A program made the translations under genes and the position numbers. DNA of 64,000 bases from Thermodesulfobacteriota bacterium (GTDB taxonomy: Bacteria; Desulfobacterota_D; UBA1144; Nemesobacterales; Nemesobacteraceae). Below, piece after piece: positions 1,774-36,086 of this stretch. The notes under the pieces are model-generated. The model searched no databases. It saw only the letters and a program-made list of their open reading frames with translations, and was not told the DNA's origin. Each line of letters opens with the position of its first letter. Within the stretch, counting starts at the first letter, position 1. Location of the stretch: the NCBI GenBank assembly GCA_965207685.1, contig OZ242294.1:1226677-1290676 (forward strand), given 5' to 3'.

Positions 1774-3336
1774 CTATTCCTTCCTGAAAACCAGGTGTTT
1801 TTCATAATCCGAGTCCTCCTCCGGATAATCAGACCTCATGTGGGCTCCCCGCGACTCCTTTCTCGAAAGGGCTGCGCGCGCGACCAGAAGACACACATCA
1901 AGCATCGTCCCGAGCTTAAAGCCAAACCATCCGGGAACCCCTTGGCCGGCCGAGGAGACCTCCTCGAGCCGCGCGGCGAATTCCTTCATGTCCTCCCGTT
2001 CTCTCACTATCCCGAGATGCTTGCTCATTCCCCCGATTATCGTAGCCTTGGCCTCGTTGAAAAACCCGGCATCGGCTTCCCTGGTGTCGGCAAGCATAAA
2101 ACCTTCGAAATCCCCGCCGATGTCCCCTGTACGCCGCCTGCTAGACGCGCTGTCAACACACCTTTTGGCAAACACCATGCACTCGAGAAGGGAATTGCTC
2201 GCAAGGCGGTTGGCACCGTGGACGCCGGTATTCGAAACCTCTCCGCATGCGTAAAGACCCTCTATGTTAGTCTCTCCCATGAGACTGGTTCTTACTCCGC
2301 CTATTGTGTAATGGGCGGCGGGAGCAACGGGAATGCGGTCTCTGGCAAGATCAAAACCCGAATCCCTGCAGAGCCTGTCTATGTTAGAGAACCTTTTCCT
2401 TACGAATCCGGGGTCCATGTGGGAGAGATCGAGATACACGTAGTCTTCCCCGCAGGATCTCATCTCGCTGTGAATCGCCTTTGAGACCACGTCCCTCGGC
2501 GCGAGTTCAAGGAGGGGACTGTAGCGTTCCATGAACCTTGTCCCCCGGGCGTTAAGGAGATAGGCTCCCTCCCCCCTTATTGCCTCGGTCAAAAGAAAGG
2601 CTTCACCTTCTGAGCCGCTGAAAACAGTGGGGTGGAACTGAACGAACTCCATGTCGGAAATCTCGGCTCCCGCTCTCCAGGCGAGCGATATGCCTTCCCC
2701 GGAAGCCCCTTCCGGATTGGTGGTCCTCCTGTAAAGGGCGCTCGCGCCGCCGGTGGCGACTATGGTGCAGGGAGAAGAAATTCTCACGTAGCTTTCCTTC
2801 CCCTCGTCGTAACCCCAGACGCCGTAGCATCTTTCCCCGTCTGAGATTATGTCGGTAACCGTGACAAGCTCCAGAATGGTTACCGATTCACTTGAACTCA
2901 CGTAAGAGATGAGAAAATCGATCATCTCCTTTCCCGTCGAGTCGCCTCCCGCGTGAAGGACTCTTCTTTTGGAGTGGCCACCCTCGAGGCCGAGCAGAAG
3001 ACCGCTGTCGTCGGAATCGAATTTCATGCCGAGATTTATCAGGTCCGCGACCCTTTCCCTGCCCTCTTCAACCAGGATCTGCACCGCGCGGGCATCGCAA
3101 AGTCCTCTTCCCGCGGCAATCGTGTCCTCTTGGTGAAAAACGGGCGAGTCCTCGGGGTCGACGGCAGCTGCGATTCCCCCCTGAGCCCAGTATGAATTGC
3201 TTTGCACGAGGGTCTGCTTGGTCACCACCACGCACCGGCCAAGAGAAGACGCGCACACCGCGGCGTAGAGACCCGCAAGCCCCCCGCCCACAACAAGAAA
3301 ATCACACTCGACGTCAATAATTTCCGCGCTCATCAA
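1774..3336 (-). CDS. nadB: L-aspartate oxidase
   Basis: 520 aa. N-terminal FAD-binding GxGxxG (VVGGGLAGLYAA) and flavoprotein succinate-dehydrogenase/fumarate-reductase-like core typical of NadB. Confidence 0.9.
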   Translation of the reverse strand: MMSAEIIDVECDFLVVGGGLAGLYAAVCASSLGRCVVVTKQTLVQSNSYWAQGGIAAAVDPEDSPVFHQEDTIAAGRGLCDARAVQILVEEGRERVADLINLGMKFDSDDSGLLLGLEGGHSKRRVLHAGGDSTGKEMIDFLISYVSSSESVTILELVTVTDIISDGERCYGVWGYDEGKESYVRISSPCTIVATGGASALYRRTTNPEGASGEGISLAWRAGAEISDMEFVQFHPTVFSGSEGEAFLLTEAIRGEGAYLLNARGTRFMERYSPLLELAPRDVVSKAIHSEMRSCGEDYVYLDLSHMDPGFVRKRFSNIDRLCRDSGFDLARDRIPVAPAAHYTIGGVRTSLMGETNIEGLYACGEVSNTGVHGANRLASNSLLECMVFAKRCVDSASSRRRTGDIGGDFEGFMLADTREADAGFFNEAKATIIGGMSKHLGIVREREDMKEFAARLEEVSSAGQGVPGWFGFKLGTMLDVCLLVARAALSRKESRGAHMRSDYPEEDSDYEKHLVFRKE

Positions 3337-3354
3337 AACCGCCTGCCTTTTCCA

Positions 3355-5970
3355 CTAGCTCACCGCTGATATAAGAAAATCCTCTATCTTTCTGAGTCTC
3401 TTGGCACCGCTTATCTTGCGCCCTCTCGAGTCACGCACGTAAAACGTATCGGTAACCTGGTCCGCCCTGGTCGAAATCTTGGCGTAGTCGATAGAAAGAT
3501 CCATCTCCGCAATTGCTTTCGTGATGCCGTAGAGAAGCCCCTCCCGGTCATGGGCATAAACCTCTATCACGGTCGCCCTGTCTGAAGACTCGTTGTCAAA
3601 CACGATTTCCGGGGGATACTCGGGAACCTTTCTTCCATAGGAGGAATAATTTCTCTTCCTCCTCTCAACCAGCTCGTCAACCTCAGCATTTCCATCAAGT
3701 ACCTTCCCGAGGTTTTTGTCGACCTTTTTCCACACCTCGCCATACTCCTCTTCGGTCAGGTGATTGGTCCTCTCCACATAGAAGACGTCAAGTGCCTTCT
3801 TATCAAGCGTGGTTACGATTCTTGCCCCCAGAATATTGAGTCCGTTCGCGCTCAGAATCCCGCAGAACACCGAGAATATCCCTTTCTTGTCGGGAGCACA
3901 GACTGTAAACTCGTCGTATTCCTCGTAGCGGATTACCTCCGTCCCGAACTTCTCCTCAATGGAGCCCAGCAGCTTCACGTGGCGCAAAATGTTCTGTCTT
4001 GAGAACTGGCCGAAATAGGAAACCGGCATTTTCTTCAATATTTTTCTCACCTTGCGCTCGGGAATCTCTCCGTCGGCGTCGGCCACTATGTCCAAGATCA
4101 TCTTCTCCATCCACTCCTGGTCGGTTTTGCGCCGGTATGTGCCTGCGGACATTTGCCGAAGGGTCTTCACGTAGAGTTCCTGGAGCAGCATCCCCGTCCA
4201 GTCTTTCCACACGTCGGGACCGACCGATCTTATGTCCGCGAAAGTCAGCAGGTAGAGCAAAGAGAGTGTTTCCTGATCGGGAATGGACTTGGCCAGCCGC
4301 TTGAGAACAACCGGGTCGTCAAGATCCCTTCTCTGGGAGAAATGGACCATGGCCAGATGGTGCCTCACCAAGAATTCAAGCTGCTCAGCGTCGGAGTCCC
4401 CGAGACCCATCCTCTCGGCTATCTTCGGAATCATGGCGGCCCCTTTCTGCGCGTGGCTTCCCCCCTGGCCCTTCCCCATATCGTGGAAAAGGCAGGCGAG
4501 AAAAAGAACATGTCTTTTCACCAAGGTCTCGGCGACTTTGGTGAGAAAGGGAAATTTCTTCTCGTATTCGTAATTTATAAGCCTTTCGATCTCCCTTACC
4601 ATGAATATGGAGTGTATGTCGACTGTATAGACGTGGTAGGAATCAAACTGCACCATGCAGACTATTTTCCCGAATTCCGGAATGAAGCGGCCCAGAAGGC
4701 GCATCTCGTTCATCTTGAGCAGCATTTTCGAGACATCCTTTCCGAAACGCAGGAGCCTCAGGAACATCCTGTTGAACTCCGGGTCGTTTCGGACCTTTTC
4801 GTCTATGCGGGTTGCCTGTTCACCCATGAGAAGTTCAAGGTATTCTGTGAATTCGACCGAGTGACGGTCAGCGTATTCAAACGCGCGCAGGAAATTGCAG
4901 AAGTCCTCGCTGAAAACGTTTCTGCTCGTCACGGAGAGATACTTGCCCCGTATCGTAAACCCGTGGTCAAGATGAATGGCCTTCTTCGCGAGCCTTCTTC
5001 GCGCGTACGCCCTCGTGCATTTTTCCGTCAGCCTCCGGGACTGCTGTACCAGCACCGCGGCACGGAGATAGTAGATCCTCATGAACTTCTCCACCGCACG
5101 GAGCTTTCCGTCCCTGTAACCGAAAGATTTTGCTGCTTGGACCTGAAGATCGAAACTCAGGTTGTCCTCCCTTCTTTTCGCCTGGTAATGCAGCTGCGCA
5201 CGCACGAGCAGAAGGAAGTTAAGGCATTTGCGTATCACCCCGTATTCCCTCTCCGAGACGAACCCCCTCTGGAGCACCTCCTCGAAACTCTTGGCCTTGT
5301 AGCTTGCCTGCGCTATCCACATCGCCGTCTGGAACTCCCTGAGCCCTCCCCTTCCTTCCTTAACGTTAGGCTCGAGGATGTAGAGGGTTTTTCCGTATCT
5401 CTCTCCCCTTACATCCCTCTCGTCCATTTTTCTCCTTATGAAATCGTGTGAAATCTTTGGGAGCACCTCGCCGTAAATTTCGTTTTCAAGTTCACCGTAA
5501 AGAGCCCTGTCCCCGCATATGAACCTCGAGTCGAGAAGAGAACTCAGGATGGTAACGTCGTTTCTGTCCATCGAGAGCTCCCTGCACTCCTCAAGGCTTC
5601 TCGTGCAGTTCCCCACATCCATCTTCGTGTCCCAGAGAAGATAAAGCATCCGCTCCACCACTTCCTCGGCTAAGCCCTTCGAGCCCTTTTTGTGAAGAAA
5701 AAGAAGATCTATGTCGGAGTACGGGGAAAGCTCCTCCCTGCCGTAACCCCCGAGAGCCACTATGGAGACGCCTTTGAGTTCCGGGTAGCCGTACCGCGAA
5801 AGGGCCCGTTTGATGAACTCGTCCACGACCGCGGTTCTCTCCTGGGCAAGCTCGTAGCCTATGAGGGCCTTGTTTTTCCTCCTCCTCGCGTAATGGCGCC
5901 TGCGTATATGCTCGTAGGAGTCCGTAAAGAAAGTCAGAAGCTCATTCTCAGTGGTCTCAAGTTTTTTCAC
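3355..5970 (-). CDS. glnD: [protein-PII] uridylyltransferase / uridylyl-removing enzyme
   Basis: 871 aa. N-terminal nucleotidyltransferase (GGYGREELSPYSDIDLLF), central HD domain (HDMGKG), two C-terminal ACT-like domains. Confidence 0.85.
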   Translation of the reverse strand: MKKLETTENELLTFFTDSYEHIRRRHYARRRKNKALIGYELAQERTAVVDEFIKRALSRYGYPELKGVSIVALGGYGREELSPYSDIDLLFLHKKGSKGLAEEVVERMLYLLWDTKMDVGNCTRSLEECRELSMDRNDVTILSSLLDSRFICGDRALYGELENEIYGEVLPKISHDFIRRKMDERDVRGERYGKTLYILEPNVKEGRGGLREFQTAMWIAQASYKAKSFEEVLQRGFVSEREYGVIRKCLNFLLLVRAQLHYQAKRREDNLSFDLQVQAAKSFGYRDGKLRAVEKFMRIYYLRAAVLVQQSRRLTEKCTRAYARRRLAKKAIHLDHGFTIRGKYLSVTSRNVFSEDFCNFLRAFEYADRHSVEFTEYLELLMGEQATRIDEKVRNDPEFNRMFLRLLRFGKDVSKMLLKMNEMRLLGRFIPEFGKIVCMVQFDSYHVYTVDIHSIFMVREIERLINYEYEKKFPFLTKVAETLVKRHVLFLACLFHDMGKGQGGSHAQKGAAMIPKIAERMGLGDSDAEQLEFLVRHHLAMVHFSQRRDLDDPVVLKRLAKSIPDQETLSLLYLLTFADIRSVGPDVWKDWTGMLLQELYVKTLRQMSAGTYRRKTDQEWMEKMILDIVADADGEIPERKVRKILKKMPVSYFGQFSRQNILRHVKLLGSIEEKFGTEVIRYEEYDEFTVCAPDKKGIFSVFCGILSANGLNILGARIVTTLDKKALDVFYVERTNHLTEEEYGEVWKKVDKNLGKVLDGNAEVDELVERRKRNYSSYGRKVPEYPPEIVFDNESSDRATVIEVYAHDREGLLYGITKAIAEMDLSIDYAKISTRADQVTDTFYVRDSRGRKISGAKRLRKIEDFLISAVS

Positions 5971-28686: not shown

Positions 28687-28714
28687 TCATCCAAAACGCC
28701 TCCCGCGGAACCAA

Positions 28715-31700
28715 TCAGAAGTTAACCTCCCCTCTCAGCATGACTCCATGCTCCGGCTCAGCAGTATCGCTCTGCCTGCGTTCTGTCTCAAGACTCAGGC
28801 TCGCGGAGCGCCCGAGATCAAGACGGCTTCCAAGCCTGTAGTGCTGCCGCCCGTCTCCGCCGAGCCTCAGGCCGCTGTATGGAGTAAGAAGTCCGTCTCC
28901 GCCGAGAGCAGCAAGCCCATAACCGAATTCCGCGTCAAGGTGCATATCATTGCCCCCGCCATCCTCAGACGAGAGCCCATCCACTCCACGCTCCCAAAGA
29001 CTGTCAACGCCGCTTGAGGTATCTCCCCACTCAGGCGCCACGCTGAACAGCACTCCCCGCTTGTCCGCCCCCGTATCGAAGATCACGGTTCCTCCCACGC
29101 CCCACTGGCTGAACTCCTCCGAGCTGTGTGCCGCAAGCCAGCGTCCCCTGCCCGAAATGCTGAGACCCAAGCTGGGGTTCTCATAGAGGAAACCTCCTCC
29201 TATTTCGACCCCCGTTCCCGTCTCCCCGTCTCCTCCGTCATGGCGAAGCGCTACCTCGACCAAGGGATTAAACCAGGTTCCGGACGCAAACCTGTACTCG
29301 TAGCTTCCCTCCATGCTGAGACGCAGTTGGTGCACGCCGAGCGACATCTCCTCGATCATGTAGTCGTCCCCCTCAACGTCCATCCACACCTTAAACGCCT
29401 CGCTCTTTAGCGAGAAAGTCGTGTCTCCCACGTCAAACACCCTGGCGCTTCCTCCCGCCGCCACCGATTTGTAGCTTAAATCGCTTGTGGCTACCTTCCT
29501 CGCACCCTCGTCGTCTATGTCTATTTGCCCACGCCCGTAGCCAAGCGCACTCCAGAGGTAAACATCTTCCGAGAGGAACCAGGAAACATAAGGAGACACG
29601 CTCACCATCTTGATATAGTAATCGCCCCTTCCTACTTCTCCCGGCGTCGTGTCCGTATAATCGAAATCTCCCTTCGTAAGAGACAGGGAAAGTCCCGTCA
29701 ACACCTTCTCGTTAAGCCACCTGTCAACTCCCATGTAGCCGCTCACGATCCGCCCGTCCCACTTGAACCATTCGTCACTTGCGACCGAAAAATTGTTGTA
29801 ATCCGCCTTGCCCCAGAATCCGATGCTTCCTCTTCTCTCGACGATCACGGGCTTTTGATCCTCGTCAACCCACATGTTGTTATCCGCAGAATCCTCCTGT
29901 GGAGACTCTCCGACGTGTCCTTTCGGGTCTTCTTCCGGATGCTTTCCCACATAGCCGCCTGGATCTTCCTGCGGATGTTCCTTCGGTTTCCTGAGCATAA
30001 CTCCGGCCTCTATTATGAATGAAGACCCGTAAAGCAGCTCCTCGAGGCTGAGAGCTTCCCACTGGTCAGGGTCGTCCCATATATCGGTTCCAATCACTTC
30101 GTGAAGGTTCGCGTGCTGATCCATAAGTCTGAACATCCCCGTACGCTCGTATGATCCCGAAAGCACGCTGTCAAGACGCCAGGTGAGGGCGTCAACCGAA
30201 TTCCTGAGCATGGTTCGCCCGAATGTGGGAAGGATTCTCAGGCTTGCGCGCCTTGCGCGCCGGATCTCTGTAGTGTTCGCCTCGGCCGTTGCTTCGGCTG
30301 AGGGGTCCCCCGGACCTACATCGTTCACCGCGCGCACCCTGAAAGAGTATACGGTGCCGTTTTCAAGGCCCGCGACCGTGTAGCTGGTTTCATTCGTCTC
30401 CCTGGAACCGCTCTGATCTATTGAGGTCCAGCCGCCGTAAGACCCGTTTTCCTCCTTCTGGCTGTACTCGTAACCGGTGATCGGCAGACCGCCGTTATCC
30501 GCAGGCCGCTCCCATACAAGAGTCACGCGCTGGTCCCCCGGCGTCGCTGTCAGATTCCGGGGCGCACCCGGCACTGTGGCGGGCGTTGCGCTTGCTGGCT
30601 CGGAGGCGGGGCCGGGACCAACGCTGTTTACCGCCCGCACCCTGAACCCGTAGGTCTCTCCATTGGTAAGCCCCGTGACGGTGTAGGAGGTGGTCGTTCC
30701 TCCTGTTGAGATCCACTCACCGTCATCAACCTTGTATTCATAACGCTCAATGGAGCTTCCTCCATTATCAGACGCATCCCAGCTAAGAGCTACCTCTCCA
30801 TTGCCCCGTGTCGCCATCAAGTTCCGGGGCGCACCCGGTACAGTGGTAAGCGTAACGCTTGCCGGCTCGGACGCGGGGCCGGGACCAACGCTGTTTACCG
30901 CCCGCACCCTGAACCCGTAGGTCTCTCCATTGGTAAGCCCCGTGACGGTGTAGGAGGTGGTCGTTCCCCCTGTTGAAACCCATGGGCCTCCATCGATCCT
31001 GTATTCGTAGCGTCCAATGGGACTTCCTCCATTATCGGGCGCATCCCAGCTAAGAGCTACCTCGCCATTGCCCCGTGTCCCCTCCAGGTTCCGGGGCGCA
31101 CTAGGTACCGTGGCGGGGGTTGCGCTTGCCGGCTCGGACGCGGGGCCGGGACCAACGCTGTTTACCGCCCGCACCCTGAATCTGTAGGTCTCTCCATTGG
31201 TAAGCCCCGTAACGGTGTAGGAGGTGGTCTTTCCTCCTGTTGAGGTCCACTCGCCGTCATCAACCTTGTATTCGTAGTGTTCAATGGGGCTTCCTCCGTC
31301 ATCGGGCGCATCCCAATTAAGCGTTGCCCTACCGTCCCCACTCATAGCCATCAACCCCGAAGGCGCACCCGGAAGCGCCGACGACGGGACGGGATTTCTC
31401 ACCTGCGAGGGCACTTTCGTATTTGAATCCGGAGATCCATTCTCATTCACGTCGGTCACGTTGATGGTCACCGTGATGGTACCAGTCAAGCCGCCCGGGT
31501 CCCGTGCGGTAACCGTAACCGTATAAATACGCTTGGGCCCCTCGTAGTCAAGGGCCGCCTTTGTCTGTATCTGCCCGGAAGTCTGGTCTTCAAGCGCAAA
31601 GGAAGCCGCATCCGTACCCCCAAGCGAATAGGTGAGACTGCCCCGGTCACCGGAGTCCGGGTCCGTAGCTGTAACCGCCGCACCGATATCTCTTCCAGGC

Positions 31701-33679
31701 GGCGTGTTCTCCGCCACAGAACGCGTGGCCGTGTTGGGCTGGAAGTAAGGCGCATTGTTTGACGGCGGCTCTACACGCGTCACAAGGTCAGAAATTGCGT
31801 ACGCCATTTTCCCGGAACCGCGCCGGTCCGTGTAGGTCACCTTTGCCCTCAGGTAATTGTCCACATCGCCCGATACCGGCGTGTAGGCGTTGCCGTTCGG
31901 GGTCCCGCTTACCGAACCCCAGCCATTCGTCCGGCTGGTTGACTTCTCCCATGTCCACGTTTCACCCGATACTGAACCGTCGGGATCGATTAGAGTCGCT
32001 TCAAGCTCCGTACCCACCTGTGGCTGCCTGGAAGAAAGAGTCACCTCTCCCTCTTCCTCCACATCGGTCACATTAATAGTCACCGTGGTCGTAATTTCCG
32101 AGGTCCTGTCCGTGACTTTAACCACCACGCCCGCATAAGAACTTTTGGTCTCGTAGTCAAGAGGCGCCTTGGTCTTTATCTGCCCGGAGGAATCAATATC
32201 AAATGAAAGTTTAGATACATCATCGAGCGAGTAGATAAGTGTTTCGTTTTCCGGGTCCGTAACCGCAATCGGTGTCCCGATGTCTACTCCAGGCCCCGTG
32301 TTCTCAGCCACAGAAAACATGTCCGGTGGGGGATCAGGATCAAAATAGGGCGCCCAGTTTACTGCCGGCACCTTTCCAGCGGACTCCGCCTCCGCGCTTT
32401 TATCAGGACCGTGGCCATCGGTATAGGAGGCCACCGCCCGCAGGTATTTATCTTCATCGTCTTCAACATTCGGGTCGCTGTCGGCAACCGGCGTGTAGGT
32501 TGCAGTCGTGGAACCGCTGCTCGTGGCACCGGTGATCGGATTCCAGTTGGTTTTGTCAGCTGACCTATACCATGTCCACTCCACATCCGTTATAGAACCG
32601 TCAGGATCAGTCAAAGTCGCAGTCAGCTCCTCATCTATTGCCAGCGTGCCGGACAGGGTCACCGTTCCAGGCTGATCTGGAGGAGGTACGCCTTCCGTCG
32701 TCGCGCTTGCTATGTTTGAAGGATCGCTTGTGCCCTCGGAGTTAATAGCAGAAACCTGGTAATGCCGCGTGTCTCCGGGAGAAAGACCGCTATGTGTATA
32801 CGTCGTGTCTGTATTGCCAGTGTCGTCTTCAAGATTCGTCCAAGAATAATTTGGGGGACCAGATGTTGAGACCTCGATTTTGTAGCCTTCCACGTAGGAG
32901 TTGGGAGCGCGCCACTTAAGCACAATCATGCTCTGCCCTTTAGGTTCCGCTTCCAGGTTCCTAGGCGGATCCGGAGCAGTGATGGAACAGACAACTCCCG
33001 CGTGTTCGAAGCTTCTGCAATTATGGGTGCCGACAGGAGTAGTAGACTGCCCAGCGCCCCTAGGACAATCAATCAGCCTCGTTTCAGTGCCTACGCAGAG
33101 AATATCGTCAAGCCAGAATTCATTGTTAGTCTTGTAGTCGCCCTTGGAAGAATCGATTATTGAAGGGCCGTCAAGCTCTAGCAGCGTCTTCGCGAATTCC
33201 GGCATATAATCCGAATGCTGACCACCTGTATCCTTCAGCTGCTTGCACGCGATTTCTGCGTCTTCGTCGGTGAAATAGTCATCGCATATTCCTCTCCACT
33301 CGGCATCGGTACCGTCATTATAATAAACTTCAAGCCTGCCTATGTCGGCCGTGACCGTACAGCTACTCGTGTTCGTGGTATCGCACAATCGAAGATCCCC
33401 GTTGCTCTGCGCATGCGCAGTTACGGAGAAAAACGCCAGCGGCAACAGTACTGCCAGCAGAAAGCAGACCCTGTCTCTCAGGCTTTCTGTTTTCCCAAGA
33501 AAGGGCGGCGGACGCAGAAACCCCCGCCCCTTCAGACAAAAGAGCGTTAACAGGGTTTCAAGTGCCTTGGTTTTTGCCCGGTTCGGGACTGGCTCAGTCT
33601 TTCTCTCGTCCGGATACGGGGACAAGAGGGATTTTCGCTGGCGCTCTACCGAAGAGACAAGCCGTTTATGTTCCACCAT
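28715..33679 (-). CDS. giant cell-surface protein: signal peptide, SRCR-like domain, FN3, 2x(Ig-like + cadherin repeat), 4x FN3, C-terminal autotransporter-like outer-membrane beta-barrel
   Basis: 1654-aa ORF. The hydrophobic signal segment LLAVLLPLAFFSVTAHA lies ~70 aa into the ORF, so the true start codon is uncertain. The SRCR consensus blocks are GRLEV.YNDG..WRGICDD, FWLDDILCVGTE..L.DCP and HNC...EHAGVVCS. The cadherin-like blocks are VAEN..PG..IG..V.A.DPD...L.YSL...FAID..SG.I.T...LDYE. Four FN3 repeats follow (WDAPDNGGSPI..YEY....GLTNGETY.FRVRAVN). The C-terminal ~520 aa are beta-rich and end in ...RGEVNF. Confidence 0.8.
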   Translation of the reverse strand: MVEHKRLVSSVERQRKSLLSPYPDERKTEPVPNRAKTKALETLLTLFCLKGRGFLRPPPFLGKTESLRDRVCFLLAVLLPLAFFSVTAHAQSNGDLRLCDTTNTSSCTVTADIGRLEVYYNDGTDAEWRGICDDYFTDEDAEIACKQLKDTGGQHSDYMPEFAKTLLELDGPSIIDSSKGDYKTNNEFWLDDILCVGTETRLIDCPRGAGQSTTPVGTHNCRSFEHAGVVCSITAPDPPRNLEAEPKGQSMIVLKWRAPNSYVEGYKIEVSTSGPPNYSWTNLEDDTGNTDTTYTHSGLSPGDTRHYQVSAINSEGTSDPSNIASATTEGVPPPDQPGTVTLSGTLAIDEELTATLTDPDGSITDVEWTWYRSADKTNWNPITGATSSGSTTATYTPVADSDPNVEDDEDKYLRAVASYTDGHGPDKSAEAESAGKVPAVNWAPYFDPDPPPDMFSVAENTGPGVDIGTPIAVTDPENETLIYSLDDVSKLSFDIDSSGQIKTKAPLDYETKSSYAGVVVKVTDRTSEITTTVTINVTDVEEEGEVTLSSRQPQVGTELEATLIDPDGSVSGETWTWEKSTSRTNGWGSVSGTPNGNAYTPVSGDVDNYLRAKVTYTDRRGSGKMAYAISDLVTRVEPPSNNAPYFQPNTATRSVAENTPPGRDIGAAVTATDPDSGDRGSLTYSLGGTDAASFALEDQTSGQIQTKAALDYEGPKRIYTVTVTARDPGGLTGTITVTINVTDVNENGSPDSNTKVPSQVRNPVPSSALPGAPSGLMAMSGDGRATLNWDAPDDGGSPIEHYEYKVDDGEWTSTGGKTTSYTVTGLTNGETYRFRVRAVNSVGPGPASEPASATPATVPSAPRNLEGTRGNGEVALSWDAPDNGGSPIGRYEYRIDGGPWVSTGGTTTSYTVTGLTNGETYGFRVRAVNSVGPGPASEPASVTLTTVPGAPRNLMATRGNGEVALSWDASDNGGSSIERYEYKVDDGEWISTGGTTTSYTVTGLTNGETYGFRVRAVNSVGPGPASEPASATPATVPGAPRNLTATPGDQRVTLVWERPADNGGLPITGYEYSQKEENGSYGGWTSIDQSGSRETNETSYTVAGLENGTVYSFRVRAVNDVGPGDPSAEATAEANTTEIRRARRASLRILPTFGRTMLRNSVDALTWRLDSVLSGSYERTGMFRLMDQHANLHEVIGTDIWDDPDQWEALSLEELLYGSSFIIEAGVMLRKPKEHPQEDPGGYVGKHPEEDPKGHVGESPQEDSADNNMWVDEDQKPVIVERRGSIGFWGKADYNNFSVASDEWFKWDGRIVSGYMGVDRWLNEKVLTGLSLSLTKGDFDYTDTTPGEVGRGDYYIKMVSVSPYVSWFLSEDVYLWSALGYGRGQIDIDDEGARKVATSDLSYKSVAAGGSARVFDVGDTTFSLKSEAFKVWMDVEGDDYMIEEMSLGVHQLRLSMEGSYEYRFASGTWFNPLVEVALRHDGGDGETGTGVEIGGGFLYENPSLGLSISGRGRWLAAHSSEEFSQWGVGGTVIFDTGADKRGVLFSVAPEWGDTSSGVDSLWERGVDGLSSEDGGGNDMHLDAEFGYGLAALGGDGLLTPYSGLRLGGDGRQHYRLGSRLDLGRSASLSLETERRQSDTAEPEHGVMLRGEVNF
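30545..31350. repeat. three tandem near-identical ~267-270 bp units (each encoding one FN3 domain) inside the giant surface-protein gene
   Basis: Near-identical ~110-nt stretches (GCCGGCTCGGACGCGGGGCCGGGACCAACGCTGTTTACCGCCCGCACCCTGAA...) recur at about 30596, 30861 and 31128. The ORF track also shows duplicated frame-shifted peptides at 30495-30716 and 30783-30983. Confidence 0.8.
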
Positions 33680-33884
33680 ATTAGCCGGTCTTTATATGAA
33701 GAATGCGGGGAATCCGAAAAAAAAGACAACCCGACTTTTCTTCAATGATTTTAGGCCTCGCACACGCACATACGAATGCCTGAGACCAAAAGAATCCTTC
33801 CGATTTAATCCGTTAAGGCGAAGCTTCGGTCGAATCGCCTGTTCCTACACAATATATTGTAGTAAAGTGAGTCTGCAGTGTCAA

Positions 33885-33900
33885 GATATTCCTTTAAATC
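33885..33900. repeat. 16-bp direct repeat GATATTCCTTTAAATC (left target-site duplication of the IS)
   Basis: Identical 16-mer immediately outside both IS termini (33885-33900 and 35313-35328). Confidence 0.75.
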
Positions 33901-33962
33901 TGTAGGGGGTCAATTAAAATGTCCGTTTTTTGAGTTAATTAGTTGTCCGGTTTGGTTTTCTT

Positions 33963-34002
33963 CAAATCAGCCTCGAAGGGCGAGCCCGAAGAGGCTGATT
34001 TG
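33963..34002 (-). terminator. perfect 12-bp stem / 16-nt loop hairpin just downstream of the transposase stop, inside the IS
   Basis: CAAATCAGCCTC-(16 nt)-GAGGCTGATTTG read directly from the sequence. No obvious T-tract follows, so its function as a terminator is inferred. Confidence 0.4.
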
Positions 34003-34013
34003 AAACCGTCTCC

Positions 34014-35207
34014 TTACCCCGTCGCCATCTTCCTTCTCTGTTCAGTTTCTTCCACGAGATTCCCTTCCCTGTCATAAAACCCCAGCCTGCGTTTCCCTTC
34101 ATGAAACACCCCTATGCTCCCATCCTCGTACTCATGCACCGCAACCTTCGCCCTCACGAAGTGATAACGATCCTTAACCGGCGGGATCTGCAAACTCATA
34201 CCCCTGTACCTGACACAATTGTCGTTGCCCACTGCCCTTGTGTGCTTAAGACACAGTATGTCATCCAAACCCACTCCGAGCAGCGGTACGAACGCACTGC
34301 CTTCCTCAGCCGCCGCTACCGCGAAACGCCCGTTGAAATCCCCTATAAAACTCTCCGAGAGAAACCTGTTCGCCTCCTCCATATCCTCTATACCCCTCTC
34401 CTCCAACTCCACAGGCAACCGCCCCTGCAACGTCTTGAACATCCTCTCGCTTCGCCCCCTTGCCTCAGGGGAGTATCCCGGAATCATTAAAACGCCCAGC
34501 TCGGCCATCGCTCTTCCAAACTGCGTGGGATTCTCCTTGTCAACCCGCCCCCCGGCCCGGGGAGTACTCCAGTAATGAGACCCTCTGTCACTGTAGAAAC
34601 TTGAGAATATGCCCTCACTCTCCAATACCTCCCGCACACCCCTCATGCTGCTCTGTGTGCCCTCCTGGGCACAGAAGAAAGCACTGTATATCCGCCCCGT
34701 GGCGTCATCCATGGTCACTACAAGGTCCCACACCTCCCGGGGAACCCACCTGTGAGTGCTCGCATCCTGATGTATCATCTCCCCCTCTCGCTTCTTGCGT
34801 TCCCTCAGCTCCCGGTGCGGCCCGCGGCGGCGCCCCCTGGGAACCGCTCCCGCATCCTGCAGACACCTCTTAACCCAGCTGTAGCCGCGGGTGCCCCCGT
34901 GGCGCTCTGTGTATGCCTCGTAGAAATGCCTTATGTTACGATTCGGATAACAACCCATGTATAGCTCCACTACCTCCGAAACCTCCTGCGGTGAAGCACG
35001 CCGAGGTGATGTCCTGCCCAAGCGCTTGTCCGAAAGTCCTTGTCTTCCCCACGCTTCGTAACGAACCACGTAGCGGCGGAAGGTCCTCTCGCTCATCTCA
35101 AGCTGCTCCCCGGCTTCTGCCTGGGTGAACTCCCTCTGCTTCCATCTGTTGTATACAGACTCAAACCGGTTTGCCCTGACCATCTGCAAATACCTTGACT
35201 GATCCAT
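34014..35207 (-). CDS. DDE transposase (N-terminal HTH + rve/integrase core)
   Basis: 397 aa. HTH region (LEMSERTFRRYVVRY) and DDE residues in the contexts IHQDAS, VTMDDAT and SPEARGRSER. Confidence 0.8.
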   Translation of the reverse strand: MDQSRYLQMVRANRFESVYNRWKQREFTQAEAGEQLEMSERTFRRYVVRYEAWGRQGLSDKRLGRTSPRRASPQEVSEVVELYMGCYPNRNIRHFYEAYTERHGGTRGYSWVKRCLQDAGAVPRGRRRGPHRELRERKKREGEMIHQDASTHRWVPREVWDLVVTMDDATGRIYSAFFCAQEGTQSSMRGVREVLESEGIFSSFYSDRGSHYWSTPRAGGRVDKENPTQFGRAMAELGVLMIPGYSPEARGRSERMFKTLQGRLPVELEERGIEDMEEANRFLSESFIGDFNGRFAVAAAEEGSAFVPLLGVGLDDILCLKHTRAVGNDNCVRYRGMSLQIPPVKDRYHFVRAKVAVHEYEDGSIGVFHEGKRRLGFYDREGNLVEETEQRRKMATG

Positions 35208-35312
35208 CTCTACCTCCTCGTTCTCCAGAGGAAATAAATCTAGTCAACCACTGCCTCTACAAACCGGACAACTAATTAACTCAAAAACCGGTCATATAAC
35301 GTACTCTCTACA

Positions 35313-35328
35313 GATATTCCTTTAAATC
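35313..35328. repeat. 16-bp direct repeat GATATTCCTTTAAATC (right target-site duplication of the IS)
   Basis: Identical to 33885-33900. Confidence 0.75.
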
Positions 35329-35465
35329 CCGATTCTTACGTCACGAAATTGAGAAAAAACTTGCAAATACAGACGCAATTCCCGCATACGGAAGAAGATT
35401 TACTCAAACAGACATGGCATGGAACTGGACGGGTGCGGTTGATCGGGAACCCGGAAGCGGGCACG

Positions 35466-36086
35466 TCATGTGGCCGGGGGCGTGTCGGGCTTCTCGGAGT
35501 AGGTGCCGTCAAGCCCCATTATTTTTGAAATTTCCTCGGGGGAATCGAGTATCTCGCCCTTGCCCATCTTGTAAAGGAAATTCGCGTTATCCCTCGGGGC
35601 ATCGCTTTTTACGTTCGGGTCGAAGAAAACCTCTTTGGTGTGAACAAGTCCCGCGCGGTTATACGAGGCGAGTTCGTACTTCATTCCCATCCTGAGCGCG
35701 TCGCACGGGCAGGCCTCGACGCAGAAGCCGCAGAAAACGCAACGCATGAAGTCTATGTTGTATACCTTGGGTCTCCTCTCGATTCCGTAATCGTCCGCGG
35801 GTTCCGAAACTATGGAGATGGCCTGGGTGGGACACGCGATCTCGCAGAGCTTGCACGCAACGCACCTTATCTCTCCCTCGTCATCGGCAGGCATTACGTG
35901 AAGCCCCCGGTAGTTCTCGGGAAGGGCCTTTACCTCCTCGGGGTATTTAACGGTTATCGGCTGGTGATTCGTTATGTGCCTTATCGTAATCATGAGGCCC
36001 TTTAGGACCTGGGGAATGTAAAGCTTCTCCCAGAAGGAAAGCCGCGGGCGCTCAAGCACTTTTACGTTTATCGCCATAGTAACCAT
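35466..36086 (-). CDS. nuoI: NuoI-like 2x[4Fe-4S] ferredoxin (NADH-quinone oxidoreductase subunit I homolog, stand-alone)
   Basis: Two CxxCxxCxxxCP motifs (CVACKLCEIACP, CVFCGFCVEACP) in NuoI-like spacing. No neighbouring nuo genes. Confidence 0.7.
   Translation of the reverse strand: MVTMAINVKVLERPRLSFWEKLYIPQVLKGLMITIRHITNHQPITVKYPEEVKALPENYRGLHVMPADDEGEIRCVACKLCEIACPTQAISIVSEPADDYGIERRPKVYNIDFMRCVFCGFCVEACPCDALRMGMKYELASYNRAGLVHTKEVFFDPNVKSDAPRDNANFLYKMGKGEILDSPEEISKIMGLDGTYSEKPDTPPAT

Follow-up and report, generated by a model that had tools for sequence, protein, structure and literature searches.

Organization of the Locus

The window, meaning the whole 64,000-nucleotide (64 kb) stretch of DNA that was analysed, contains a complete insertion sequence (IS) of 1412 bp at positions 33901-35312, with TGTAG...CTACA ends and its transposase encoded on the minus strand. 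The IS is located between two genes that are also on the minus strand. The gene upstream of the insertion encodes a NuoI-like 4Fe-4S protein (35466-36086), and the gene downstream encodes a surface protein of 1654 amino acids that features SRCR, cadherin, and five FN3 domains (28715-33679). The latter is an accessory gene and lies downstream of the promoter that the IS appears to have targeted. The distance from the IS end at 33901 to the ATG of the surface-protein gene at 33679 is 222 bp, in agreement with the ~220 bp given in the first-pass annotation of this DNA. The same annotation described an intact IS with TGTAG ends, a DDE transposase and an internal hairpin, and all of these features are present where it had placed them.

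The terminal inverted repeats are 54 and 53 bp long and match at 45 positions, with a single 1-nt indel. The left inverted repeat (35260-35312, minus strand) is proximal to the transposase gene and consists of the tip TGTAGAGAG followed by two (A/T)TG(A/T)CCGG motifs. The right inverted repeat (33901-33954, minus strand) has the tip TGTAGGGGG and features an outward-facing TTGACC 7 bp from the tip. The length of ~55 bp proposed earlier for the repeats is therefore correct, but the perfect inner run is 28 bp (33927-33954 versus 35260-35287) and not 30 bp. Each repeat contains two (A/T)TG(A/T)CCGG motifs, the second being an internal motif near each end. Imperfect inverted repeats with a second, internal transposase-binding motif near each end are one of the criteria by which the IS1202 family is recognized, and the architecture in the window agrees with the published inverted repeats of the ISTde1 group.

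A conserved hairpin (33961-34004, minus strand) lies in the gap that separates the stop codon of the transposase gene from the right inverted repeat. It is formed by a 14-bp perfect outer stem and an inner stem (-32.8 kcal/mol, z = -2.5), and six covarying pairs were found across 10 related IS copies. Because the hairpin is conserved with covariation, it is functional in some way. A role as an intrinsic terminator was rejected, since there is no U tract after it on either strand and a terminator scan makes no call there. An Rfam search of 33200-35600 gave no match.

Transposase and Family Assignment

The transposase gene (34014-35207, minus strand) encodes a protein of 397 amino acids and is preceded by a GGAGG ribosome-binding site. 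The catalytic residues are D148, D207, and E254, with an extra pair, D167-D168, and a glutamine, Q261, at position E+7. Across 47 homologues the aspartates and the glutamate do not vary, and Q261 is shared by at least 90% of these proteins. D207 and E254 are separated by 47 residues; a relative that is 71% identical (L008) has the same D-to-E spacing, yet its duplications are 5-6 bp. The predicted model of the transposase features an RNase H fold, a beta-barrel, and two domains of the helix-turn-helix type, and its best fold matches are TnsB, IstA, and MuA. These matches come from the fold search only, and a PDB sequence search with the transposase returned no match. Exact-sequence look-ups of the window transposase and NuoI found no record. 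Full-length relatives of the IS are ~84% identical at the nucleotide level, each with its own duplications.

The element had been proposed to be either an IS1202-group member or an unusual IS481 member. The NCBIfam model NF033594 (ISNCY_2), which we take to stand for the IS1202 group (formerly ISNCY), matches the transposase with 342 bits against a cutoff of 250 and covers profile positions 2-359 of 368. The IS481 model NF033577 scores 92 bits, below its cutoff of 224, so that the first half of the proposal stands and the second is discarded. IS481 transposases are distantly related DDE enzymes and IS481 elements also have TGT ends, however, the long duplication and the glutamine at E+7 of the window IS do not fit that family. 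Both family papers describe the IS1202 family as having a DDE triad with two extra aspartates between D1 and D2, a glutamine rather than K/R at E+7, a single transposase ORF of 394-507 amino acids, and an element of 1.3-2.0 kb. The TGT...ACA ends, the 16-bp duplication, the 1412 bp, and the 397 amino acids of the window element are within the ranges of Table 7 of PMC10132070.

Judged by duplication length, ends, size, and transposase features, the element is classed as a typical, ordinary member of the ISTde1 subgroup of the IS1202 family. It shares with ISTde1, ISCARN53, ISFersp1, and ISPa130 the transposase family, the DDE triad with the extra DD and the Q at E+7, TGT...ACA ends, inverted repeats with two motifs, a length of 1.3-1.4 kb with a transposase of ~400 amino acids, a duplication of 15-17 bp and, as shown here, insertion abutting a -35 hexamer. 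It differs in that it faces the promoter with its right inverted repeat, whereas most published members do so with the left. The tip of its right repeat is TGTAGG, with TTGACC 7 bp inside, whereas most published members have a TGTCAA tip. Additionally, its host is Dadabacteria/Thermodesulfobacteriota-like and is missing from the published host list. TnsB (Tn7, type V-K CAST), IstA (IS21), and MuA have helix-turn-helix domains, an RNase H core, a beta-barrel, and TGT ends in common with the family (PMC10132070), however, they need a separate AAA+ or target-selector partner (TnsC with TnsD or TniQ, IstB, MuB) and the window IS encodes one protein only.

Target-Site Duplication and Empty Sites

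The IS is flanked by a perfect direct repeat of 16 bp, GATATTCCTTTAAATC. One copy is beside the left inverted repeat on the nuoI side (35313-35328), and the other is beside the right inverted repeat (33885-33900), where it abuts the -35 hexamer of the predicted surface-gene promoter. These are the only two copies in the 64 kb, even with 2 mismatches allowed (expected 0.03). The 16-mer is AT-rich (11 of 16 bases). The repeat would measure 17 bp if the A at 33884/35312 were counted; 16 bp is preferred because the ends of the family are TGT...ACA.

Empty sites were located via orthologues of the N-terminus of the surface protein. In two related genomes, L127 and L129, nuoI and the surface gene are neighbours without an intervening IS; both genomes are collinear with the reconstructed empty site and carry the 16-mer once. 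Since two IS-free relatives carry the interval with a single 16-mer, the repeat is a true target-site duplication, as the first-pass annotation had read it. The possibility that the annotation had raised against its own reading, a duplication already present at empty sites, was checked in the same two genomes, and the 16-mer is single-copy in both. The insertion was made by a 16-bp staggered cut, which became the flanking duplication. The closest NuoI relatives (L030-L035) are unusable as empty sites because the whole surface gene is absent from them, and a search of JGI metagenomes for exact 23-nt matches to either the filled or the empty junction had no hits.

The Promoter of the Surface-Protein Gene

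The predicted promoter of the surface gene features a -35 hexamer, TTGACA (33879-33884, minus strand), whose first base adjoins the duplication, and a -10 hexamer, TACAAT (33856-33861, minus strand), after a 17-nt spacer. This sigma70-type promoter, TTGACA-17-TACAAT, agrees with the consensus at 11 of 12 positions and is part of the host DNA that separates the gene from the IS. It is a prediction from consensus and conservation: both hexamers are identical in the window, L116 (a related genome that is discussed below), L127, and L129, and the spacer is about half conserved. There are only 12 strict promoter-like sites in the 64 kb, and the duplication abuts one of them exactly.

The IS ends upstream of the -35 hexamer, at a distance of exactly 16 bp, and the duplication restores this stretch. 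The insertion leaves the core promoter intact and has moved only what lies beyond about -52, by 1.4 kb. We infer that the surface gene keeps its own predicted basal promoter and that the IS gains a harmless intergenic site.

Insertion Beside -35 Hexamers in Related Elements

Both founding papers on the IS1202 family found no target for the subgroups with long duplications. The published flanks of these subgroups were taken from the ISTde1 and IS1202 sheets of Supplementary Table 1 of Siguier et al., with the rows transcribed by hand. In 22 of the 36 rows of the ISTde1 sheet, TTG is directly adjacent to the duplication at the left-repeat side (p = 6e-31). When the ISTde1 sites are aligned on TTG, T24, A25, and T29 are each found in 24 of 27, and there is a hint of an extended -10 TG. 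The IS1202 sheet has TTG abutting the duplication in 23 of 32 rows (p = 7e-35). A -10-like hexamer is present at the expected distance, with a 17-bp spacing, in 27 of these 32 rows, versus 6 of 32 on the other side. Six of the nine IS1202 rows that lack TTG have the -10 at the exact distance.

Newly gathered insertion sites give the same picture. Among 55 flanks from the left-repeat side, 38 have TTG 15-18 nt from the IS tip, and it is at 16 nt in 23 of the 38 (background 1-2 per offset). When 46 sites are aligned on TTG, a TAnnnT for which they were not selected emerges behind a spacer of 17 nt (T 28/43, A 35/43, T 30/42). Of 130 unique flanks, 29 have the full promoter-like motif at offsets 15-18, and none of the remaining offsets between 0 and 69 has it more than once. 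The length of the duplication equals the TTG offset in all 12 sites with a scorable duplication. Part of the gathered flank set is noisy, as many short-read metagenome contigs are without matching duplications, probably because of chimeric assembly across the repeat. A crude test of ORF direction counted 25 outward versus 8 inward ORFs on the promoter side and 30 versus 17 on the other side, a result that does not clearly set the two sides apart. A dif-like site beside TTGACA was also considered and rejected, as the flanks have no common motif beyond the two promoter hexamers.

The IS clade of the window has the promoter motif on the right-repeat side in nearly every copy. The right inverted repeat is the one that faces the promoter in this clade, and the left one has this position in most of the family.

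Insertion with base-pair precision beside -35 boxes is very probably a habit of the family, and base-pair-precise insertion on the -35 side by these elements is probably so far unpublished. For the window we put the probability at roughly 0.85 that the IS sits at the preferred target of its group, just upstream of the -35 of a sigma70-type promoter, which here is that of the surface gene.

Selection of the Target

One of the two cuts adjoins TTGACA on its upstream side, and the other was made 16 bp farther from the gene. The promoter as a whole would direct target capture, most likely with the promoter-bound RNA polymerase holoenzyme (sigma region 4) as the landmark. We regard the chances of the promoter-bound holoenzyme being the landmark for target capture as about even. 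A parallel to such a landmark would be found in the sister subgroup, ISAba32, whose insertions lie 5 bp from dif sites bound by XerC. The ISAba32/ISAjo2 elements (dif and pdif 'site hunters') belong to the IS1202 family as well, and they also insert in one orientation, with a spacing from a host protein's binding site that is constant to the base pair. They differ in that their landmark is the XerC arm of dif-like sites at 5 bp, with duplications of 3-6 bp, versus the -35 box and 16 bp for the window IS.

In a more specific and more tentative form, the ISTde1 group (15-18 bp) and the IS1202 group (24-28 bp) might both use promoter-bound holoenzyme as the target selector and contact region 4 of sigma70/sigmaA on the -35 box. 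The upstream edge of the -35 would then set the position of one strand transfer, with the second occurring at a distance of one to two and a half helical turns. Two observations favour a role for the polymerase, namely the -10 at the exact distance in six of the nine TTG-less IS1202 rows and the hint of an extended -10 TG.

It is also possible, although we consider it somewhat doubtful, that the transposase itself reads TTGACA with no RNA polymerase, and that the -10 signal comes from the purging of intragenic non-promoter insertions. TTG is invariant and placed to the base pair, and most published ISTde1 and IS1202 right inverted repeats begin with TGTCAA, so that a readout of TTGACA could be caused by its likeness to this tip of most right ends in the family. 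Genomic IS copies are survivors of selection, and the enrichment of -10 hexamers could come from that selection. However, six of the nine IS1202 rows without TTG keep a -10-like hexamer exactly where it is expected, and weak -35 hexamers (TTGCGC, TTGCCG) are paired with a perfect TATAAT at 17 bp. The right tip in the clade of the window is TGTAGG, yet the target is TTGACA. Conservation falls from A4 to C5 to A6, much as it does in promoters at large.

The yeast elements Ty3 and Ty1 insert at Pol III promoters, keeping a set distance from a promoter element, and spare the gene. If the polymerase-guided reading is right, the IS elements share with them this fixed-distance integration at promoters that spares the gene. 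Ty3 and Ty1 are different in being eukaryotic, in using an RNA intermediate, and in having an integrase tethered to TFIIIB or Pol III, and they are not homologous elements. If guidance by the holoenzyme is true, these elements would be the first known case of bacterial transposons that home in on the transcription machinery, and a prokaryotic counterpart of Ty3 and Ty1.

Age of the Insertion and Its Effect on the Surface Gene

L116 features a related IS between nuoI and the surface gene, in the same position and orientation as in the window. This match, together with an IS identity (84%) that is near the host identity (86%), could indicate an old insertion that is orthologous to that of L116 and goes back to a common ancestor, instead of a separate event of recent date. 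We consider this improbable. The window genome is not a sister of L116: it is closest to L031 (90.9%), which has neither the surface gene nor the IS, and L127 and L129 are without the IS. The two duplication copies within each genome have the bases of their own lineage, GAATATC in the window and GAACATC in L116, and the duplication in L116 is 7 bp versus 16 bp in the window. Additionally, the L116 transposase is present in at least four identical copies in its assembly, and therefore the IS there moved recently. Base-pair-precise targeting of promoters predicts just such recurrence. A recent insertion, as the first-pass annotation had proposed, is borne out in the sense that it post-dates the local sequence divergence, since both copies of the repeat in the window carry the 16-mer version of their own lineage and the relatives are empty.

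The annotation had further suggested that the IS displaced or supplied a promoter for the surface gene, and had proposed a scan of the IS ends for outward-facing hexamers. The outward TTGACC, 7 bp from the tip of the right inverted repeat, could in principle provide a -35. Alternatively, the transposase transcript could read through, as the transposase and surface genes are co-directional and the hairpin, having no U tract, may not terminate transcription. Supply or replacement of the promoter by either route is nevertheless very unlikely. The native TTGACA-17-TACAAT is intact in host DNA and is conserved in IS-free relatives. The hexamer 17 nt downstream of TTGACC is AATATC, which is without the final T and is no usable -10 partner, and a scan for another minus-strand promoter between the IS and the surface gene found none.

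The chemistry of the IS1202 family is presumed to be copy-out-paste-in. A circle-junction promoter, in which the right repeat would provide an outward -35 and the left repeat an inward -10, fails for the window IS, since the spacer would be ~21 nt if the ends abut directly. Such a promoter is plausible in those published members whose tips are TGTCAA and TGTAAT and whose junction is 16-17 bp.

A coincidental adjacency through near-random insertion into AT-rich intergenic DNA would agree with the AT-rich 16-mer and with the survival of intergenic sites under selection, but it is hardly credible when the duplication exactly abuts one of only 12 strict promoter-like sites in 64 kb and the abutment recurs in the clade of the window, in distant metagenome relatives, and in two published curated sets (p <= 1e-19).

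Implications

For the host genome, the element is an ordinary passenger IS upstream of a surface gene whose predicted promoter is kept. For the family, the flanks from the published tables and about 100 new sites point to a preference, precise to the base pair, for the upstream edge of promoters of the sigma70 type in many phyla. If confirmed, this preference would explain why these elements are tolerated, as no gene or core promoter is ever split. It would predict repeated independent hits at one promoter, as seen in the window and L116, and tandem arrays with one common duplication. For annotators, it would mean that common IS positions in the IS1202 family are unreliable as markers of descent. 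The preference would also open a test of whether a transposase reads the transcription machinery, and it would suggest a single-protein tool for placing DNA directly upstream of promoters.

An Intact Insertion Sequence of the IS1202 Family

The element occupies positions 33901-35312 (1412 bp, TGTAG...CTACA ends) and has a minus-strand gene on either side: one is NuoI-like (35466-36086), and the other (28715-33679) encodes a surface protein of 1654 aa that contains SRCR and cadherin domains and five FN3 domains. The first-pass annotation described an IS of this length with a transposase, a hairpin, and a 16-bp direct repeat, all of which are present, and its estimate of ~220 bp between the IS end and the surface-gene start agrees with the 222 bp measured to the ATG. 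The terminal inverted repeats, a right repeat facing the surface gene (33901-33954) and a transposase-proximal left repeat (35260-35312), are 54 and 53 bp long with 45 matching positions and one 1-nt indel; this fits the ~55 bp claimed, and the inner perfect run is 28 bp instead of 30 bp. The direct repeat GATATTCCTTTAAATC lies on both sides of the element (33885-33900 and 35313-35328) and has only these two copies in the 64-kb window with up to two mismatches permitted (0.03 expected).

The transposase ORF (34014-35207, minus strand, 397 aa) occupies the element. The protein scores 342 bits against the NCBIfam model ISNCY_2 (cutoff 250) and 92 bits against the IS481 model, below its cutoff of 224, which upholds the IS1202-group (ISNCY) assignment proposed initially and removes the unusual IS481 member offered beside it. 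The IS1202 family is defined by TGT...ACA ends, a length of 1.3-2.0 kb, a single transposase of 394-507 aa, and a DDE triad accompanied by two additional aspartates and a Q at E+7, and its subgroups differ in duplication length, with 5-6 bp for ISAba32, 15-17 bp for ISTde1, and 27-28 bp for IS1202 (bioRxiv 10.1101/2022.12.17.520857, PMC10132070). The transposase features D148, D167-D168, D207, E254, and Q261; among 47 homologues the aspartates and the glutamate are invariant and Q261 is at least 90% conserved. The AlphaFold model (mean pLDDT 82) reveals two helix-turn-helix domains, an RNase H core, and a C-terminal beta-barrel, with TnsB, IstA, and MuA as best fold matches, the same matches given for ISAjo2 in PMC10132070. 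Since the family criteria, the residues, and the fold fit, the element is a regular member of the ISTde1 subgroup. Its closest copies (83% aa, 84% nt) are found in Dadabacteria/Thermodesulfobacteriota metagenome-assembled genomes of 1.6-1.9 Mb.

The hairpin (33961-34004, -32.8 kcal/mol, z = -2.5) separates the transposase stop codon from the right inverted repeat. It is kept in ten related IS copies (the window's and nine others), in which six of its pairs covary and the loop, TTCGGGCT(A)CGCCC, is conserved. A U tract after the hairpin was not found on either strand; an A-rich tract follows it instead, which rules out a canonical terminator.

Empty Sites and Probable Independent Insertions

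The nearest relatives by NuoI (L030-L035, 93-97% aa) have convergent nuoI and accA genes with ~100 bp between them and lack window 28687-35483, which holds the surface gene and the IS; the surface gene itself is therefore accessory. It fills the slot between nuoI and accA in the window and in three related loci, L116, L127, and L129. Outside bacteria, its SRCR domain is best matched by an SSC5D-like protein from a sponge (Halichondria), and this similarity suggests that the surface protein is eukaryote-like and belongs to a sponge symbiont. L127 and L129, which were found through orthologues of the surface-protein N-terminus, carry the surface gene ~350 bp after nuoI with no IS between. Their spacer is collinear with the reconstructed empty site of the window and contains the 16-mer in single copy, GAATTTACATGAATATG compared with GATTTAAAGGAATATC in the window. 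The empty-site comparison set in advance thus identifies the flanking repeat as a genuine target-site duplication, and the insertion is real.

L116, on a 1.66-Mb contig, features a related IS (84% nt, L116:1396-2830) between nuoI and the surface gene that matches the window's IS in position and orientation, and its transposase has at least four identical copies in that assembly. The L116 duplication is only 7 bp (GAACATC), with TTGACA directly next to it; L121 has an 8-bp repeat, also directly followed by TTGACA. Compared over nuoI and the 3' part of the neighboring sodium:solute symporter (SSF) gene, host identity is 90.9% between the window and L031, 86.2% between the window and L116, 85.6% between the window and L127, and 90.7% between L127 and L129. 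L031 has neither the surface gene nor the IS, so the IS-bearing window and L116 genomes are not sisters. Within each of these two genomes, both duplication copies carry the lineage's own bases, which, together with the IS-free L127 and L129 and the non-sister relationship, supports an insertion after the lineages had diverged, in line with the recent one proposed earlier. The simplest reading is that the window and L116 represent independent hits on one promoter, the outcome that precise targeting predicts.

The Promoter at the Insertion Point

The minus strand reads from the right inverted repeat (...CCCCCTACA) through GATTTAAAGGAATATC into TTGACA ctgcagactcactttac TACAAT, with the hexamers at 33884-33879 and 33861-33856, and a promoter scan determined that TTGACA-17-TACAAT matches the consensus at 11 of 12 positions. 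Both hexamers are the same in the window, L116, L127, and L129 and the spacer sequence drifts, a pattern that is, judged from conservation, the probable phylogenetic footprint of a working promoter older than the IS. The duplication regenerates the 16 bp upstream of the -35. The first-pass annotation suggested that the IS might have displaced or supplied the surface-gene promoter, however, the promoter is intact and conserved in IS-free relatives and therefore was not displaced, and for the outward-facing TTGACC of the right repeat the sequence 17 nt on, AATATC, is a poor -10. The ~170 nt from the predicted transcription start to the ATG (window 33680-33850, minus strand) carry blocks kept in four genomes, such as GGATTAAATCGGAAGGATT and a T8 run, and no Rfam match was found in this interval.

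A Positional Rule across the Family

In related copies from species-representative genomes, the host flank that follows the right repeat and duplication starts with TTGACA or TTGnnn, and the order right repeat, duplication, TTGnnn recurs in nearly all of eleven further loci with the closest IS copies. A further 80 loci of more distant relatives were taken from JGI metagenomes, with IS ends set by inverted-repeat alignment. Here 38/55 flanks have TTG at a distance of 15-18 nt from the tip of the left repeat, 23 of them at exactly 16 nt (background 1-2 per offset), and TTGAC is found at 15-18 nt in 22/55, where ~0.05 are expected. Alignment of 46 unique sites on TTG gave A, C, and A at positions 4-6 (32/46, 32/46, and 26/46) and, 17 nt further on, brought out a TAnnnT that had not been selected for (T 28/43, A 35/43, T 30/42). 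The full promoter-like motif occurs at offsets 15-18 in 29/130 unique flanks and at most once per offset elsewhere in 0-69. For each of the 12 sites where a duplication could be scored, its length (15-17 bp) is the same as the offset of the TTG. The side used differs between groups: TTG is on the right-repeat side only in 10 copies of the window's clade and on the left-repeat side only in none, compared with 3 and 27 in other relatives.

Published data confirm the rule independently: Siguier et al. give curated ends, duplications, and flanks in Supplementary Table 1, from which every row having a duplication was transcribed. On the ISTde1 sheet, TTG adjoins the duplication on the left-repeat side in 22/36 rows (binomial p = 6e-31), and another 5 rows have it solely on the right-repeat side. 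The aligned sites feature T24, A25, and T29 (each 24/27), a -10-like hexamer at spacers of 16-18 in 22/27 (control spacers 1, 7, and 3), and a hint of an extended -10 TG. The IS1202 sheet, with duplications of 24-29 bp and including IS1202 itself from Streptococcus pneumoniae, shows TTG adjoining the duplication on the left-repeat side in 23/32 rows (p = 7e-35) and a -10-like hexamer at the expected distance in 27/32, vs. 6/32 on the right-repeat side. Sequences with at least 5/6 matches to TATAAT cluster 22-23 nt from the duplication boundary, and the -10 is at the right distance in 6/9 rows lacking TTG. tRNA genes are directly downstream of several targeted promoters (ISCde4, ISDku2, ISFersp1, ISSua1, and ISTna1 rows). 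Three ISVbsp4 rows have no TTG at the duplication and have a common GGGGCA ~10-12 nt to its left, perhaps an alternative target motif used by this branch.

Three compound arrangements also fit repeated insertion at -35-like hexamers, some of them within the IS itself: tandem copies with one common 15-bp duplication (L124:1380-2840), a copy next to the remnant of an older IS, both at one TTGACT (L119:1330-1400), and one IS joined 8 bp upstream of a TTGACT just inside another copy's left end (L122/L123). In L003, the first 33 nt of the left inverted repeat (1058-1090) lie 1.84 kb upstream of the remaining element (2934-4317), and the left end is interrupted by an insertion.

Possible Landmarks for Insertion

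Since the hexamer always adjoins the duplication, the proximal cut keeps a fixed place and only the distal one varies; in different elements it falls at a distance of 5-6, 7-8, 15-18, or 24-29 bp. We infer that roughly one helical turn separates the successive steps of 5-6, 16-17, and 27-28. Three copies in one genome (L008, L009, and L010 in OZ245933.1; ~2880-2900 and 4308) encode a transposase 71% identical to that of the window with no indel, yet they have 5-6 bp duplications, with the left repeat 5-6 bp from TTGACA, so duplication length in this clade is not set by a catalytic-domain indel.

The favored reading, with a probability of about 0.5, is that promoters would be recognized through promoter-bound RNA polymerase holoenzyme as the landmark for insertion. 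A direct reading of TTGACA followed by selection is a tentative alternative, judged somewhat improbable. The holoenzyme is preferred because the insertion point is coupled to the -10 just as tightly as to the -35, also at sites with a degenerate -35, because a good -10 allows a weak -35 hexamer to be used, and because the rule spans Firmicutes, Proteobacteria, and Dadabacteria. It is also preferred because a sister subgroup of the IS1202 family homes to XerC-bound sites.

According to both family papers (bioRxiv 10.1101/2022.12.17.520857, PMC10132070), no target was found for the long-duplication subgroups, and full-text searches short of TnPedia and the Siguier et al. journal article gave no account of IS1202-family or other bacterial IS that target promoters or the -35. 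A base-pair-precise preference for sites upstream of promoters in two IS1202-family subgroups is apparently unreported so far. As an IS, this copy adds an ordinary member to a subgroup already known. The value of the finding is the target preference that its position revealed, not the supply or displacement of a promoter, which the evidence does not support.
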